A DNA stretch of 32,488 nucleotides, from positions 1 to 32,488 of the IMG/VR virus record IMGVR_UViG_3300049140_000190. One strand, 5' to 3'. Shown one piece after another: positions 3,206 through 32,488 of the stretch. Numbering within the stretch: the stretch's first letter is position 1; each line of letters starts with the position of its first letter. Made by a program: the position numbers and the translations under genes. The notes beneath the pieces are model-generated. The model saw only the letters and a list, made by a program, of their open reading frames with translations, made no database searches and was not told the DNA's origin. The stretch comes from a virus (Duplodnaviria; Caudoviricetes).

Positions 3206-3245
3206 GTGGCCTCCATGTGCTCGTCCGTCAGTGGCTTACACATGG

Positions 3246-3293
3246 GTTATGTCGTAATCGGAGCGGCATGTGACGCGGCCCGTCGAAGATCTT
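3246..3293 (-). promoter_or_regulatory. Three-box phage promoter-like motif, copy 1 (upstream of the exonuclease)
   Basis: GTTRTGTCGTAATC-N8-ATGTGACGC-N7-CGAAGATCTT, repeated with identical spacing at 6068-6115. Confidence 0.65.
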
Positions 3294-3320: not shown

Positions 3321-3413
3321 AGGCCAAAAATGCAAACTAACCCCTATTTTCAACTTCTCTCTAACGCGCATAGAGAGAAAGTGAAAGTAGGGGTTAGTTC
3401 GACACTTTGGCCT
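3321..3413. repeat. Long AT-rich inverted repeat (43-bp arms, 7-nt loop)
   Basis: Arm 3321-3363 vs reverse complement of 3371-3413: 35/43 identical without gaps; weaker symmetry extends to about 3301-3435. Confidence 0.9.
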
Positions 3414-3461: not shown

Positions 3462-4235
3462 TCAGCCCTCTGACCTGCGGCTTTTCAGATGACGACGCAG
3501 CCGGCGGACGGTGCGCTCCATCTCCGCAAGCTCCTCGTCGAGTTTGGCACGCTGCCCATCCGTCATGTGCCCGTCGATGACGTCGGTGTCGATCTGGCCG
3601 ACGATGGAGACCGCAACCTTCGCCAGGCGGAGGTGGTCGGCCGTCGCCTTGACGCCCGTACCGGGGCCGCCTCCCTGCGTGGGGACGATCTCCTCTGTAC
3701 TGCCCTTGGGCTTCTTCGCTGCCTGCGTCTTCCTCGGGGTGGACGCCTCCACCTCTGCCGCCACGCGCGTTGCGCGGAGGATCGTTGCGTCAGTGGCCCG
3801 TCGGTCCTGCTGACGCTCCAGCGGGGATGCGTCCTTCAGCTTCAACGCTTTTAGTTCGCGGGGCGTGAGGTGGCGACGGACCATGTTGCCGACGTGGTAC
3901 CGCACGTTCGCCTGTAGCCGCTTCAACTGATCCCTGTCGCGGATGTTGGCAGCGCTGTACACCTCTGCCGCGTCACGTCGGTAGTCACCCATCTGCCCAA
4001 GCCAGTCGTCATGCCGCTTCCGCAGGGCGAGGAGAACCACGGCAATGTTCTTCGCGAGTAGCTCCGGCTTGTGCTCAATGGCGGCGTACTCGCGAGCGTA
4101 GGCGGCACCACGAGCGATCAGTGCGGCCGTCTCTTCGTGCTCGATGGTTTCGAGGTCGAGGTCCTGGACGCTCGCAGCGTTGACGTGGGTCACAGCCGCA
4201 TCGTCACGCAGTCGGGCAACTTCCTTCGGGCTCAT
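3462..4235 (-). CDS. Putative immunity repressor / DNA-binding regulator (257 aa)
   Basis: GAGGAGAGG RBS; basic, helical protein between the dNMP kinase/holin and the exonuclease, where temperate Streptomyces phages place a phiC31 c-like repressor. Function inferred from gene order. Confidence 0.55.
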   Translation of the reverse strand: MSPKEVARLRDDAAVTHVNAASVQDLDLETIEHEETAALIARGAAYAREYAAIEHKPELLAKNIAVVLLALRKRHDDWLGQMGDYRRDAAEVYSAANIRDRDQLKRLQANVRYHVGNMVRRHLTPRELKALKLKDASPLERQQDRRATDATILRATRVAAEVEASTPRKTQAAKKPKGSTEEIVPTQGGGPGTGVKATADHLRLAKVAVSIVGQIDTDVIDGHMTDGQRAKLDEELAEMERTVRRLRRHLKSRRSEG

Positions 4236-6034: not shown

Positions 6035-6067
6035 GCGTCCTCATCCCCTCTGCATCCTGACACTGGA

Positions 6068-6115
6068 GTTGTGTCGTAATCCGGGGTGGATGTGACGCAG
6101 AGGGGCGAAGATCTT
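6068..6115 (-). promoter_or_regulatory. Three-box phage promoter-like motif, copy 2 (upstream of the dNMP kinase)
   Basis: Same three boxes as 3246-3293 at a constant offset of 2822 bp. Confidence 0.65.
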
Positions 6116-20693: not shown

Positions 20694-21043
20694 CCGCTCA
20701 CCCGCCTTACGTAGATCTCGACGCGGGCCAGGGACGTCAGGGGGAGGACAAGGGGTTCACCCTCCGCCTGCCACACCTCGTCACCCCGAAGGATCTTGTC
20801 CGCCGGGCGCACGTCGGTGCCGAGCGGGGCGGCAAACACTCGTCGGGTGTCAACGATCGTCGACGCGTCGTGCGTCTCCGTCGAACTGCCGACCGTGACG
20901 CCGTAGGGGCTCATGATCGCGCAGTTCCTGACCTCAATGAGGATGGGCGGGCCGTCGACTTCGGAGCCTGTGGAGTCCCGGACGGGCTCCCCGGCTCGCT
21001 TGATGGTGAGCGTCTCCGACATAAGCTGAGCTATTAGGCTCAC
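20690..21043 (-). CDS. Head-to-tail stopper (117 aa)
   Basis: APLGTDVRPADKI..WQAEGEP; gene order. Confidence 0.8.
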   Translation of the reverse strand: MSLIAQLMSETLTIKRAGEPVRDSTGSEVDGPPILIEVRNCAIMSPYGVTVGSSTETHDASTIVDTRRVFAAPLGTDVRPADKILRGDEVWQAEGEPLVLPLTSLARVEIYVRRVSG

Positions 21044-26137: not shown

Positions 26138-27847
26138 TCAGAAGGCGACAAGGCGGTTGGACCGCTTCCGACGTTTGGTAATTCCCGCGGCCACCGCATC
26201 CGCGCGGCATTCGTAAGCCAGGACTGCCGCCATTGCGGCGTCGATCTTCTTCGGGCTCTTCGGGTGTTCCTTGCCGATGCCCATGTGGTTGCGACCCATC
26301 GGCCGGCGCTTCGCGTTGAGGACGTGGCGGGTGAGCGTGGCACCCAGCTTGGAAAACTCCGCCTCGTCGTCCGCCTTAGCAGTGCCGGCGAAGGAGAGGG
26401 CCTTGTCGTCGACGGCCTCTACGAAGCGGTCTAGGGCGTGCTCCATGGCCGTCGGGCGGTTAGTCCACCACTCTAGGGGGCGCGACTGTACGGCGCTGAT
26501 CTGGAGCCCTTCGGCGTATTCCGACGTCCACTTGTCTACGTAGTCCTGCCAGTGCGGCGGGTCGCAGTAGAAGCCGCAGACCTCGTACACGTCGAAGGCG
26601 TTTGCGACGCGGTTATCCACCGCCTCACGGTCGACTTGCCAGCCTTCACCCTCAGCGCCTTCGGGCTTTTCCCAGACTCCCAGGAGCTGGAGGTGACCGT
26701 CAGAAACGCGACAGGCGACGAGCGCCGTGGCGTCGTCTCGGATGGACCCGTCGAAGCCGAGAGTGACGAGGTCACCAGGCTGGAGCGGCTCCGGCCGACG
26801 GCAGACTTCCCACGCGTCCGGCTCCATCCACGAGTCGCTGGAGGAAGTCCGGGAGTTGAGGAAGTATCGCTTGCCGTCAGCGGAGTCGTTACGCAGGTCG
26901 TAGAAGTCGTCGACGAGCGTCTCCAGGTCCATCCACTCCATGGCGTCGCCGTAGGAGTCGATGAGGGCCGCGCGGAGTTCCGCCTCGTCCTTCAGGTTCT
27001 TGCAGACGCCGTAGCGGTGGTCGTAGAGGAGACGAGCGCGACCGCGCTTCTTCTTCCCCTCGCGGATGGCCTCCGCTTCCTCGTAGGTGCGCTCAGCGAC
27101 GGAGTCTTGCCCCGGGGCGAACATCGTCGTGGTTTCGAGGTACCACGTACCGGCGCCCTTCTTCCTCTTGCGGAGGTTACGAGTAACCGTCGCATACATG
27201 CGGCGTAGTTCGGGGGTGTTGTAGAGGTGGGTCTCATCGAAACAGACCCATGTTTCCTTACCGCCGTCTTTCGAGGAGCTGGAGGCGGTCGACGGGGTGA
27301 TTTCCCCACCGTCGGGGAGGTTGATTTTGGTAAGTCCCGGGTCAACGCCCGGAATCTGCGACAGGGGCGACGCCTCGTCGGTCAGGTTGAAATGGATGGT
27401 GTCGTAGACGTTGCCGGTCTGGCCCTCTTCCGTCGCCATGATGCGGAGGTAAGGGACCTTGACCGGGCGGCCCATCGGCTCGCCAGGCTCGTAGACGTAC
27501 TCAAAGCCCAGGCCCCACGGGTCGCGGTAGACCTCCCCGCCCTCTGCCCAGCCGGCGAAGCGGGAGGGGCCGAAGGCTTCGAAGAGGCCGATGCGGGCGC
27601 CTAGGCCCGACTTGTCGCAGCCCTTCGGGCGGGAGAAGAAGGCGGAGTCGTAGAGCATCTTGCCGGCGTGGTCGTCGACCGCGTAGCAGTCCACGACGAA
27701 GCCTGTGTACTCGTCGCCGTGCCGTACCGGCTCGCCCTGGACGTCGCCAGGGCCGTGAACGACGAAGTACTCCATCCATGCGACCGCCATCCACCCGAGA
27801 GAGCGGGAGCGGTCGTGACCGGGGGCGCGCACGGTGACGTGCGGCAC
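26138..27847 (-). CDS. Terminase large subunit (569 aa)
   Basis: Walker A variant SRPKGCDKS, Walker B VCFDETH, nuclease GFDGS..DATA and KIDAAMA. Confidence 0.95.
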   Translation of the reverse strand: MPHVTVRAPGHDRSRSLGWMAVAWMEYFVVHGPGDVQGEPVRHGDEYTGFVVDCYAVDDHAGKMLYDSAFFSRPKGCDKSGLGARIGLFEAFGPSRFAGWAEGGEVYRDPWGLGFEYVYEPGEPMGRPVKVPYLRIMATEEGQTGNVYDTIHFNLTDEASPLSQIPGVDPGLTKINLPDGGEITPSTASSSSKDGGKETWVCFDETHLYNTPELRRMYATVTRNLRKRKKGAGTWYLETTTMFAPGQDSVAERTYEEAEAIREGKKKRGRARLLYDHRYGVCKNLKDEAELRAALIDSYGDAMEWMDLETLVDDFYDLRNDSADGKRYFLNSRTSSSDSWMEPDAWEVCRRPEPLQPGDLVTLGFDGSIRDDATALVACRVSDGHLQLLGVWEKPEGAEGEGWQVDREAVDNRVANAFDVYEVCGFYCDPPHWQDYVDKWTSEYAEGLQISAVQSRPLEWWTNRPTAMEHALDRFVEAVDDKALSFAGTAKADDEAEFSKLGATLTRHVLNAKRRPMGRNHMGIGKEHPKSPKKIDAAMAAVLAYECRADAVAAGITKRRKRSNRLVAF

Positions 27848-29508: not shown

Positions 29509-30303
29509 TCACGCAGCGACCACCAGTTCGGGCACGGGTTGATCATCGCGGGCGCCCTTGCGCGAGTTGCACAGGAAGTGTGCGCACTGCACGTTGGCCG
29601 GCTCGTGCGTCCCACCGTTGGCCAGTGAGATCACGTGGTCAACAACAGGTGCAAGCGGATGCGGAACGACCTCGTCACGCTCCACAGCACCTCCGCACAG
29701 ACCGCAGGTCCATCCGTCCCGCGCGTACACCATGGCAGGCGACACGTGGGCCACGTATGCATCACGTGCGCGCGCTCGTCGGGCTGCCTTGCCGTCAGCC
29801 TTCAGACACCGATGACTGCAATAGGCTGACGGCCTACGGTTGTCAGCCAGCACATACGGCGTGGCACACCGCCGGCACACGCCCGCTATCCACCTGCGCG
29901 GGTGAGCTACTGACTGTCGTGCAGGGTGCCGCTCCGGTATCTCACATGTACGGCCCCGTCGTGCGGGGTGCGTCTCTGGTATGGGGCTCTCCTTCACCCC
30001 ATCCTGCATGAGGACTCGGCATTCGGGCGAGCAGTACTTAGCATCCTTGCGCTGCGTCCTCCACGTCCGCCCACACGCGAGGCACTCGCGATCGACCTTG
30101 TACTTGTCGGCATTGGCCTTCTGGTACGCAGCGTTGTAGTCCTTCAGCTTGCGTCGCTGCTCCGCGAGCCGGCCGTCAGCCCTACGCCGCGCGGTGTACG
30201 CACGTTGCTCACACAGGGGCTCGCAGTACTTCCTCCTACGGGGCGCTTCAAACGCCTTCCCACAAGGCTCGTACTGGCACGCCAAAGCAAGGCTCTCCGC
30301 CAT
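29509..30303 (-). CDS. HNH endonuclease with three N-terminal Zn-finger repeats (264 aa)
   Basis: RDGWTCGLC..DHVISLANGGTH..NVQCAHFLCN; repeats CxxC..(K/A)YC(S/E)xxC. Confidence 0.88.
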   Translation of the reverse strand: MAESLALACQYEPCGKAFEAPRRRKYCEPLCEQRAYTARRRADGRLAEQRRKLKDYNAAYQKANADKYKVDRECLACGRTWRTQRKDAKYCSPECRVLMQDGVKESPIPETHPARRGRTCEIPERHPARQSVAHPRRWIAGVCRRCATPYVLADNRRPSAYCSHRCLKADGKAARRARARDAYVAHVSPAMVYARDGWTCGLCGGAVERDEVVPHPLAPVVDHVISLANGGTHEPANVQCAHFLCNSRKGARDDQPVPELVVAA

Positions 30304-30400
30304 GTCTGCTCCAAGGAATAGCGAGAGCCCCCAACGCCTTGGTTCGCTGGGGGCTCTCTTCCCGCGGGGATCAGCCGCGGGTGCCTATGGGGTTGTGGTG

Positions 30401-30655
30401 CTACTCGGCTGCGAAGCCGATGGGGTTGCGCACGCTGGGCTCGTCGTCCTCGCCCCTGATCTCCACAGAGGCGGGCCGGAGAACGAGCGTTACGGTCATC
30501 GACCGGATGTCTCCGTCGCCCATGTCGACCTTCGGAGGTCGCGCCATCGTCCCGACGTAGGTCCCGTTCACGCGGACCGCGGACACCAGAACTCCGTCAG
30601 CGGGGTCGTAGTCCGCGTCGATGATCTCGACTCGTGCTCCGCCAGAGCGGGCCAT
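30401..30655 (-). CDS. Hypothetical protein (84 aa)
   Basis: TGATG overlap with the upstream HNH gene; GGAGG RBS. Confidence 0.75.
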   Translation of the reverse strand: MARSGGARVEIIDADYDPADGVLVSAVRVNGTYVGTMARPPKVDMGDGDIRSMTVTLVLRPASVEIRGEDDEPSVRNPIGFAAE

Positions 30656-30957
30656 CAGTCCTCCAGCGCCGGGTGAGTTGGCTTCGGTCGGTTGATCGTC
30701 ACGCGCGTCAGTGCGGCGGCTCGCCCGCCTTCGCTACTGCTCTTCTTCTGGTGGTGCCACTTGCAGAGCAGCCGCAAGTTCTCTTCGCTGTGGTCGTCGC
30801 CCGGGATGATGTGGTCGACGTCAGTGCCTTCCGCGCTACACTTCGTGCCGTCGCTCATGGGCCAGACGCACGACTTGTCACGCCGGATGATGCGGCGTCG
30901 GATCTTCGGCCAGTCCTTCGGGAGACGCTCGCGCCGGGTGCTGCCTTCCCACGCCAT
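30655..30957 (-). CDS. Small HNH endonuclease (terminase-associated type, 100 aa)
   Basis: RRD..C..C..TDVDHI..NLRLLC..HH.KK; GGAGG RBS. Confidence 0.9.
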   Translation of the reverse strand: MAWEGSTRRERLPKDWPKIRRRIIRRDKSCVWPMSDGTKCSAEGTDVDHIIPGDDHSEENLRLLCKWHHQKKSSSEGGRAAALTRVTINRPKPTHPALED

Positions 30958-31042
30958 AGCGCCTCCGCTTCCTGCGCCCGTGCCTTACGCTGTGGGCTCC
31001 GTGCGGCCAGGGGAGGCCGCTAAGTTCATGGGGGGATGCGCT

Positions 31043-31669
31043 ATGCGCGCCTACATCCGCCGTGCCGTGGTGCCGGCCGTCGCTCTGTCCTTCGCCCTGG
31101 TGACGGGGTGCTCGTCCGATGACGGGGGCGGGGAGGCGACGTCGAAGCAAGAGCCAGCCGCGGAGGCTTCCGTCGAGCCGGCGGACGCGCCGTCATCGGA
31201 GCCGCCCTCTTCCGCCCCGGCCCCGGTCGTCAAGGTCGGTGAGACGAAGACGTGGGACTACGGCGAGACGGACGACTACGGCGAGAACTTCAAGGTCACG
31301 ACGAAGATGTCCGTCACGGTCGTCAGCGCGAAGTACGTGACGCCGGCTGAGATCGACACGACCAACAGGCCGGAGCAAGGTCAGTTCGTGGAGCTGACGC
31401 TGACGCTGAAGAACGTCGGCAAGGCTCCCGCGGACGTCATGCTCTACGGGATGCTGAAGTGGGAAGACGATCAGACGGCCGCGCAGGACGCCACGACGTT
31501 GGAGGGCGCCGGCGAAGGGCCGGAGCTGGACACGACGTACAAGCCGGGCCAGTCCGTCACGGGCAAGGTGGTGCTCGACGTCGCACGCAAGGGCGGGACA
31601 GTCAGCTACACCGGCACGGATGATCCCAACGCGGAGGCGGCTTTCGTCGTGGAGCTTCCGTCCTCCTGA
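31043..31669 (+). CDS. Lipoprotein with Ig-like (DUF4352-like) domain, 208 aa; candidate superinfection-exclusion or accessory protein
   Basis: Signal peptide with lipobox VTGC; Ser/Pro/Ala linker; GQFVELTLTLKNVG..PGQSVTGKVVLDV; only convincing plus-strand CDS. Confidence 0.85.
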   Translation: MRAYIRRAVVPAVALSFALVTGCSSDDGGGEATSKQEPAAEASVEPADAPSSEPPSSAPAPVVKVGETKTWDYGETDDYGENFKVTTKMSVTVVSAKYVTPAEIDTTNRPEQGQFVELTLTLKNVGKAPADVMLYGMLKWEDDQTAAQDATTLEGAGEGPELDTTYKPGQSVTGKVVLDVARKGGTVSYTGTDDPNAEAAFVVELPSS

Positions 31670-31678
31670 ACGTAGTCA

Positions 31679-31713
31679 GCCCCGCTCCCGGGAACTCTCC
31701 TCCGGGGCGGGGC
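31679..31713 (+). terminator. GC-rich hairpin after the lipoprotein gene
   Basis: GCCCCGC..GCGGGGC outer stem with additional inner pairing, about 10 nt after the stop. Confidence 0.6.
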
Positions 31714-31718
31714 GTGTC

Positions 31719-31727
31719 TGCTAGCGT
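31719..31727 (+). promoter_or_regulatory. Extended -10-like element (TG-C-TAGCGT) upstream of the mini-array
   Basis: TGnTAnnnT pattern ending 11 nt before repeat 1. Confidence 0.5.
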
Positions 31728-31738
31728 GGAACGCGCAA

Positions 31739-31871
31739 CATCTCCCCGCCGACGCGGGGGTGGCCCGGTTGATGGGCACGGAGGTTGTTCTCGAACCTCC
31801 TCTTCCCCGCCGATGCGGGGGTGTTCCTGCTTGGTACTCGAAGTGGTCCCCGCCGTTGCGGGGGATGGGGA
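31739..31871 (+). CRISPR. Cas-less type I-E-like CRISPR mini-array: 3 degenerate 29-bp repeats, spacers of 32 and 14 nt
   Basis: R1 31739-31767 CATCTCCCCGCCGACGCGGGGGTGGCCCG; R2 31800-31828 CTCTTCCCCGCCGATGCGGGGGTGTTCCT; R3 31843-31871 GTGGTCCCCGCCGTTGCGGGGGATGGGGA. Shared TCCCCGC-N4-GCGGGG hairpin plus 8-nt tail; 61-bp R1-R2 period. Confidence 0.82.
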
Positions 31872-31903
31872 GCGGCTCCGTCTGGGGCCGCTCTTCTCTG
31901 TGT
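31867..31903 (+). terminator. Terminator-like hairpin closing the mini-array (possibly bidirectional with the tRNA operon)
   Basis: GGGGAGCGGCTCC-GTCT-GGGGCCGCTCTTC followed by TCTGTGT. Confidence 0.65.
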
Positions 31904-31974
31904 CGGAACGGCAGGGATCGAACCTGCGTCCTCCCGCTCCCAAAGCGGGCGCCCGGCCTCTGGGCTACGTTCCG
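31903..31974 (-). tRNA. tRNA-Pro (anticodon TGG)
   Basis: CGGAACG/CGTTCCG-A acceptor; GCCC/GGGC D stem; CCCGC-TTTGGGA-GCGGG; GCAGG-TTCGATC-CCTGC; no encoded CCA. Confidence 0.92.
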
Positions 31975-32092
31975 TGGGCGGTGCCAGCCGGCGGCTCCCG
32001 AGTGGTGTTGGGACCGTTCACGGGCTCACGACTTGCGGACGATTTCAGAGGGCCACTCCCGCTCTGCGTCCTACGCCTCCGCCTGGCGCTCG

Positions 32093-32172
32093 TCCCTGGC
32101 CGTGGAATCGAACCACGCTAGCCGTCTCCAGCGCAGGCTTTACAGGCCCGCTTGCGTCCCAGCGCTCCAGGG
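32093..32172 (-). tRNA. Atypical tRNA-Tyr (anticodon GTA)
   Basis: CCCTGGA/GCCAGGG-A acceptor; loop CTGTAAA; long variable arm GCTG-GAGA-CGGC; CGTGG-TTCGATT-CCACG; weak D arm. Confidence 0.7.
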
Positions 32173-32177
32173 TTGCG

Positions 32178-32260
32178 CGGAAGGTGAGGGAGTCGAACCC
32201 CCAACGGCCGGAACCGCCACGCTTTTCGAGAGCGCGTGGCACGCCAGTGCCGGACCTTCC
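32178..32260 (-). tRNA. tRNA-Ser (anticodon CGA)
   Basis: GGAAGGT/ACCTTCC-G acceptor; loop CTCGAAA; long variable arm; GGGGG-TTCGACT-CCCTC. Confidence 0.85.
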
Positions 32261-32446
32261 TCGTCAGGGTCTTTGGTGAGGCAGGACCCGACGTCCCGGA
32301 GACTGCCTAGCCTCGCCAGTCCCGGGGGAGGGCGAGGAACAATGTGCTGTCCGGGTCCCGCCGTCGGACAGCATGGGTCGCGTCCGGCTCAGCCGGGGCC
32401 CACCTGCAAGGCGCGTGCTGATCAGTCACGCACGGGACGCCTCCTG

Positions 32447-32488
32447 TTGGCACGGAGGGATTCGAACCCCCAACGCACGGCTCCGTAA
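32447..32488 (-). tRNA. tRNA-Arg (anticodon ACG), 3' half only, cut by the window edge
   Basis: TT-ACG-GA loop, GCCGT, GGGGG-TTCGAAT-CCCTC, CGTGCCA-A. Confidence 0.7.

Follow-up and report, generated by a model that had tools for sequence, protein, structure and literature searches.

A cas-less type I-E mini-array in a Streptomyces siphovirus, a probable Cracr-type silencer of host cas-locus promoters

Cas-less viral arrays whose guides mimic those of the host regulators CreR and CreA have been described as Cracrs by Liu et al. (bioRxiv 10.1101/2024.10.29.618823), who count 219 Cracrs and 30 arrays, 20 of the latter of type I-E; the array of a Salmonella prophage, CracrIE, was tested there, and Actinomycetota are among the targets. 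Phage copies of CreR/CreA were predicted by Shmakov et al. (bioRxiv 10.1101/2023.03.03.530964). Cascade holds one Cas7 per 6 nt of spacer, and shortened type I-E guides give complexes with fewer Cas7 subunits and without Cas3 cleavage (PMC6859484); that every sixth base is flipped out by Cascade is established (see also bioRxiv 10.1101/2023.03.03.530964). As a class, Cracr arrays are already described, and the array reported here, found in a viral stretch of 32,488 nucleotides (hereafter the window), is a further example. What is added are candidate targets, natural 14-nt guides in hosts and phages, a shared guide pool and the expression of an orthologue. We read the locus as a Cracr-type array through which host Cascade is likely made to repress the promoters of cas loci, with a probability of roughly 0.8.

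The window covers part of the genome of a temperate siphovirus of Streptomyces, with terminase, portal, capsid and tail genes, and the closest record for positions 30300-32488 is phage Samy (79% identity, 63% of the query). As had been noted from the sequence, no cas genes were seen in it: a PHROGs comparison of 32 selected ORFs of this partial phage genome gave no cas hit, and as far as these ORFs show the array is encoded by the virus, outside any CRISPR-Cas locus. It is a genuine three-repeat type I-E array and occupies positions 31739-31871 (Table 1). In a pattern scan of the whole window the only exact matches to the TCCCCGC-N4-GCGGGG hairpin start at 31743, 31804 and 31847 (spacings of 61 and 43 nt), which bears out the repeat count and the 61-bp R1-R2 spacing that the sequence-only reading had given. 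When up to two mismatches were allowed, the window held 15 matches against a mean of 5.8 in shuffled sequences, and one of 100 shuffles reached this number. Each repeat is predicted to fold into a 7-bp stem with a 4-nt loop. Comparison with the repeats of host arrays upheld the assignment to type I-E and the link to Streptomyces, R1 and R2 agreeing equally well with the best host repeats (Table 1) and R3 at 21 of 29 positions. The 8-nt tail claimed earlier for all three repeats therefore stands for R1 and R2, while that of R3 is no conserved handle. R1 begins 11 nt after an extended -10-like element and a strong hairpin overlaps R3, both where the sequence-only reading had placed them; the former was not called by an E. 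coli-type promoter scan, nor the latter by a terminator scan of the + strand. An Rfam search returned no CRISPR family over the array.

Table 1. Features of the array, its surroundings and one host locus. Positions are those of the window unless an accession is given.
Feature	Position	Strand	Description and basis
DUF4352 lipoprotein-like gene	31040..31669	+	Pfam PF11611, E 1.7e-8; marks insertion site
GC-rich hairpin, likely terminator of upstream gene	31679..31713	+	z -3.9; kept in L128, L129
Extended -10-like element TGnTAnnnT	31719..31727	+	sequence; kept in Samy, L127, L131, L376
Repeat R1	31739..31767	+	type I-E hairpin and 8-nt handle; 25/29 vs Streptomyces array repeats; fold
Guide S1	31768..31799	+	32 nt; family members in L284, L289; candidate AAG-flanked target in NZ_CP060827.1
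Repeat R2	31800..31828	+	25/29 vs commonest host repeat; fold
Guide S2	31829..31842	+	14 nt; 7 further contigs, phage or phage-like, hold family members; candidate AAC-flanked target in NZ_CP054921.1
Repeat R3	31843..31871	+	hairpin kept; tail degenerate, merged with terminator
Strong hairpin, likely terminator	31864..31898	+	z -5.2; between array and convergent tRNA-Pro
tRNA-Pro(TGG)	31902..31974	-	last gene of convergent tRNA cluster
Small hydrophobic ORF, putative toxin	NZ_CP060827.1 42948-43112 (L388:697-861)		position between target and host mini-array

The array stands behind a DUF4352 gene whose strand is opposite to that of the structural genes. Five viral loci carry an orthologue of this gene: two have an array (L126, identical to Samy at the site, with a 21-nt guide, and L127, whose guide has 14 nt), L128 and L129 are empty and L130 is cut off. 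Both empty sites keep the upstream hairpin and lack the promoter element. Downstream of the same promoter-like element, arrays with other guides were found in L131, L062 and L376. Related phages thus vary the guides at this site, a point that the sequence-only reading had proposed to check, and the sequences compared indicate that it is a variable cassette in which guides are swapped or missing.

Several other observations were made in the window. Genes for tRNA-Pro, tRNA-Tyr and tRNA-Ser occupy positions 31902-32488 together with a tRNA-like fragment, which sits where the contig ends; Samy has a different tRNA set. An AT-rich inverted repeat with 43-nt arms lies at 3321-3413, and similar ones occur at another location in Samy, near the integrase, and in L129. 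A 59-nt intergenic direct repeat (3235-3293 and 6057-6115, 75% identity) is possibly a phage regulatory motif.

Expression was examined for the Samy orthologue (L126) in six raw RNA-seq runs from two studies (X17-X22), all standard libraries, with the strand calibrated by the upstream gene in X22. On the array strand the depth rises inside R1 from about 6 to 165-270 (X17), 3 to 126-209 (X18), 4 to 63-121 (X19) and 112 to 324 (X22), i.e., about 15-45-fold in three runs and about 3-fold in the fourth, while X20 and X21 showed no rise and only declining read-through. Transcription of the orthologue from its own start is thus supported, at the 5′ edge, by four of the six runs; for this edge the result agrees with the earlier proposal that the array forms its own transcription unit. 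The read ends cluster at L126 positions 3723-3727, some 20 nt past the start that was predicted and 3-7 nt short of position 3730, where Cas6e would cut; they support a separate promoter and are uninformative on Cas6 processing. Standard RNA-seq libraries under-recover short RNAs.

The RNA of L126 also reads through the counterpart of the downstream hairpin, antisense into tRNA-Pro and beyond (L126:3820-3980). This, together with the degenerate R3, would suit an RNA that regulates the tRNA genes of the phage in antisense, or an array that has decayed and lost its function. We give almost no credence to either, as the guides recur beside unrelated neighbours, and the phage arrays retain the hairpin and the handle as well as spacer lengths that differ by about 6 nt from one class to the next. 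The lengths were surveyed over 80 distinct viral guides taken from short, GC-rich viral arrays (regular longer arrays were excluded and a few non-CRISPR palindromes included): ten guides fall at 13-15 nt, 31 at 19-21 nt, eight at 25-28 nt and 31 at 29-34 nt.

Both guides of the window belong to families shared among phages, and members of these families also occur in phages with unrelated neighbour genes. S2-type guides of 14-15 nt are present in eight contigs (the window, L127, L283, L284, L286, L287, L289 and L364), five of the seven others having been retrieved without the S2 seed in the query. Positions 1-5 are invariant in this family, position 6 varies between G, T and C, and the sequence changes towards the 3′ end. 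S1-type guides of 32 nt are present in three contigs (the window, L284 and L289); here position 6 is T, C or A, different in all three members, and the homologues diverge beyond about 14-20 nt. A degenerate repeat-plus-seed pattern, too loose in that it matched 378 of 401 Streptomyces genomes, yielded L376, and a metagenome scan gave seven matches, namely one mini-array (L364) and six ordinary spacers or chance matches.

On 156-kb contigs (L284/L288 and L289) we observed six-repeat arrays that stack guides of 20, 19, 32, 14 and 27 nt; these belong to several families, and relatives of S1, of S2 and of the Samy guide are among them. The Samy guide family (L001:1434-1454; L131) resembles host guides of L250, L254, L255 and L265, whose target lies 77-107 nt ahead of cse1; in the seed it differs from them once, at position 8. 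A TGTC-containing motif is common to the leaders of four phage arrays (L121, L283, L286, L287) and the DNA upstream of cse1 in four host loci (L266, L268, L269, L273); we take this promoter motif before phage arrays and casA to resemble a DNA-damage (PafBC-type) promoter.

The hosts carry look-alike guides. Our host cas set comprised 120 of the 136 cse1 matches from 251 Streptomyces genomes, unselected for guides; the guide-target pairs given below were counted by eye. In Streptomyces arrays 2041 of 2115 spacers are 32 nt long. Degenerate mini-arrays were seen in several cas loci, and their seeds pair with sites that are flanked by AAG or AAC and lie 77-379 nt ahead of cse1. In one clade (L214, L219, L220, L221) the guides are 14 nt long and co-vary with a target some 135 nt ahead of cse1, and the guide of L219 begins like S2. 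A pattern built on the S2 seed was found in three of the 401 genomes, namely that of L219, one with a further cas locus (G654) and one with a chance match in a coding region. Seven of nine plasmid homologues of the G654 region were examined, including L378, whose host guide is identical to S2 over the first 10 nt. Within the S2-type clade, eight of 12 loci have 14-nt spacers and four have 26-nt spacers, by eye. For S1, ten of 16 plasmid loci collected by casA coding similarity to L266 were examined, including L388. S1 has 12 of its first 14 nt in common with the host guides of L388 and L266, with position 3 differing; the 32-nt guide of L266 differs at positions 3 and 13. At least nine PAM-proximal nucleotides in common with a host CreA/CreR spacer were, strictly taken, found for S2 only. 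L385 and L390-L394 show homologous pairs of guide and target whose seeds are different.

It was also seen that mini-arrays with 14-nt host spacers occur upstream of casA at L214, L219-L221 and L381-L384, and that their seeds co-vary with a site at the predicted casA promoter. A Streptomyces rochei plasmid (NZ_CP133099.1; H55, H68) has type I-E systems from each of the two targeted clades; at the locus of the S1 clade (L389) no regulatory array was seen in the short intergenic region.

Candidate targets of both guides lie between cas3 and casA. That of S2 is in Streptomyces sp. NA03103 (L378, NZ_CP054921.1, record positions ~20716-20729), AAC-flanked and 126 nt upstream of casA. S2 pairs with it at 11 of 12 informative positions, with a mismatch at position 11 and further differences at the free positions 6 and 12. 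On the casA strand the site covers a -35-like hexamer located 18 nt before a -10-like hexamer, both predicted by eye. The candidate target of S1 is in S. genisteinicus (L388, NZ_CP060827.1, from ~43232 downwards), AAG-flanked, and precedes casA by 219 nt and a small hydrophobic ORF by 120 nt; S1 pairs with this site at all 12 informative positions of 1-14. Position 3 of S1 pairs with this target, whereas the host guide of L388 does not.

These matches were compared with those of 63,372 mock guides derived from the window. Over ten loci, preselected via L266 and not by target sequence, one of the mock guides was as good as S1. Over seven loci 29 were as good as S2, an optimistic figure in that the loci were preselected via the S2 seed. 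In the 120 unselected cas loci the best match of S1 has two mismatches, equalled by 18% of the mocks, and that of S2 has three, equalled by 77%; scans of these loci for the exact seed and for PAM plus seed returned nothing for S2 and one near match for S1 (L266). When all 80 phage guides were run against the 120 unselected regions upstream of cse1, four perfect PAM-seed matches were obtained, three of them from one guide family, against a shuffle mean of 0.25 and with none of 500 shuffles reaching this number. The version with one mismatch was weak (19 matches against a mean of 13, equalled in 15 of 300 shuffles). The weak result at unselected loci suggests that the targets sit in uncommon, partly plasmid-borne type I-E variants. 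Across the 401 genomes, the PAM-plus-seed pattern of S2 occurred in 11, below its reversed control, with no cas family among the ORFs tested around nine of the 11 sites, and that of S1 occurred in 80, at or below control. The recurrent genomic site of the S1 pattern was set aside, being the start of an ordinary enzyme gene, presumably that of dihydroxyacetone kinase. In genome G317, whose prophage has an orthologous array, no AAN-flanked match to the prophage guides was seen by eye upstream of cse1, and no self-target in the window or the Samy stretches held up.

In five loci of the S1 clade (L266, L385, L388, L391, L392) hydrophobic ORFs of 38-56 aa lie on the same strand between the target and the host mini-array. 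For the two that were checked no Pfam family was found, and their BLASTP match to each other was not significant. The layout resembles creT-creA and looks like an unannotated CreTA-type module, and the ORF may encode a toxin.

Three roles had been put forward from the sequence alone, namely repression of a promoter, targeting of rival phages and action as a decoy, and the matches between cas3 and casA favour the first. In a weapon against other viruses, S1, which has the canonical length of 32 nt, would direct host Cascade-Cas3 at rival phages or plasmids. The search of spacers against phages and plasmids that was to reveal such a target found no full-length S1 protospacer (none in 50,697 phage and none in 72,556 plasmid records), and S1 homologues diverge after about 14-20 nt; we consider this role very unlikely. 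The best match in a Streptomyces phage, Gilgamesh (17 nt, E 3), is preceded by CGT, not by an AAN PAM, and was rejected. That Streptomyces type I-E systems do encounter this phage group is indicated by a host CRISPR spacer (L198) that agrees with the terminase gene (window 27378-27409) in 29 of 32 nt, next to an AAC PAM. The same spacer matches L127-L131 more closely still.

As a pure decoy, akin to Racr, the RNAs would do no more than sequester Cas6e, Cas7 or Cascade, and the guides would be relics of host regulatory arrays that the phage had captured. Capture from host arrays alone would account for the similarity to host guides, a 14-nt guide gives a small, non-cleaving complex, and competition with crRNAs has been reported for Cracrs (bioRxiv 10.1101/2024.10.29.618823). 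Decoy action leaves unexplained, however, that drift affects position 6 and the distal part but not the seeds, and S1 fits the L388 target at position 3, unlike the host guide of that locus. We therefore hold a pure decoy to be improbable, though less so than a weapon.

In the preferred reading, that of a Cracr-type repressor, host Cas6e would cut the array transcript into RNAs of 61 and 43 nt, which would load host Cascade and park it on cas3-casA promoters without cleavage. S2 would form a mini-Cascade with three Cas7 subunits over the predicted -35 box of casA in one type I-E clade. S1, pairing over about 14 of its 32 nt, would act in a second clade and repress the divergent promoter region there, which fronts the small hydrophobic ORF, possibly a CreT-like toxin. 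Competition for Cas proteins may add to the effect. A more elaborate version is tentative, and we regard it as rather less probable than its contrary: phages would draw on a shared pool of swappable guides, the 14-nt guide would be the smallest Cascade repressor, acting on the casA -35 box, the 32-nt guide would silence an undescribed small membrane-protein toxin of the CreT kind, and a cassette of 185 bp would disable immunity as well as the suicide safeguard in different systems carried by plasmids.

If this holds, RNA-guided silencing of CRISPR by phages extends to Streptomyces, with named candidate targets, and its expressed example sits in Samy, a phage already in laboratory use. In the main text of the Samy paper (PMC11302927) all four mentions of CRISPR concern Cas9 editing. 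The reading predicts that hosts and phages naturally use 14-nt guides, an engineered extreme in the cited literature, as repressors, and it raises the possibility of a toxin-antitoxin safeguard of type I-E. Native Cascade-Cas3 editing in Streptomyces could also be weakened where such a prophage is resident. Our literature search found no title or abstract on Streptomyces phage arrays of this kind, which the supplementary tables of the preprints may list.

Several described systems share features with this locus. Like virus-borne mini-arrays of interviral conflict (bioRxiv 10.1101/2023.03.03.530964), it is a short cas-less array in a virus; unlike them, it showed no full-length viral protospacer, and one of its guides is too short for Cas3 cleavage. 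With the Racr RNA anti-CRISPRs (PMC10651486) it has in common viral repeat mimics that need host Cas6 and Cas7 (a need predicted here), whereas a Racr is a solitary repeat unit and the window has three repeats and two guides with candidate DNA targets. As in the host CreR/CreA mini-CRISPRs (bioRxiv 10.1101/2023.03.10.532045; bioRxiv 10.1101/2023.03.03.530964), the candidate pairing is a partial one in the seed, beside an AAG-type PAM upstream of casA and with position 6 free, and the distance from target to casA is about 140 bp for Salmonella CreR (bioRxiv 10.1101/2023.03.10.532045) versus 126 nt here. Unlike the host elements, the array is phage-encoded and multiplexed and has a natural 14-nt guide. 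The closest match is to the Cracr arrays (bioRxiv 10.1101/2024.10.29.618823), which likewise are cas-less viral type I-E arrays, with three pseudo-repeats and two guides mimicking host CreR/CreA. As in the CracrIE array, each guide points to a different variant of a single CRISPR type and the last repeat is degenerate; guide lengths are 14 and 32 nt here versus 24 and 21 nt there. Unlike the Cracr arrays of that paper, the one in the window has no acr gene that we recognised beside it. The predicted toxin-promoter target is of type I-E, versus I-F in the CreTA case tested in the same work, and the setting is Streptomyces, which the main text of that preprint does not mention (its Table S2 may differ).
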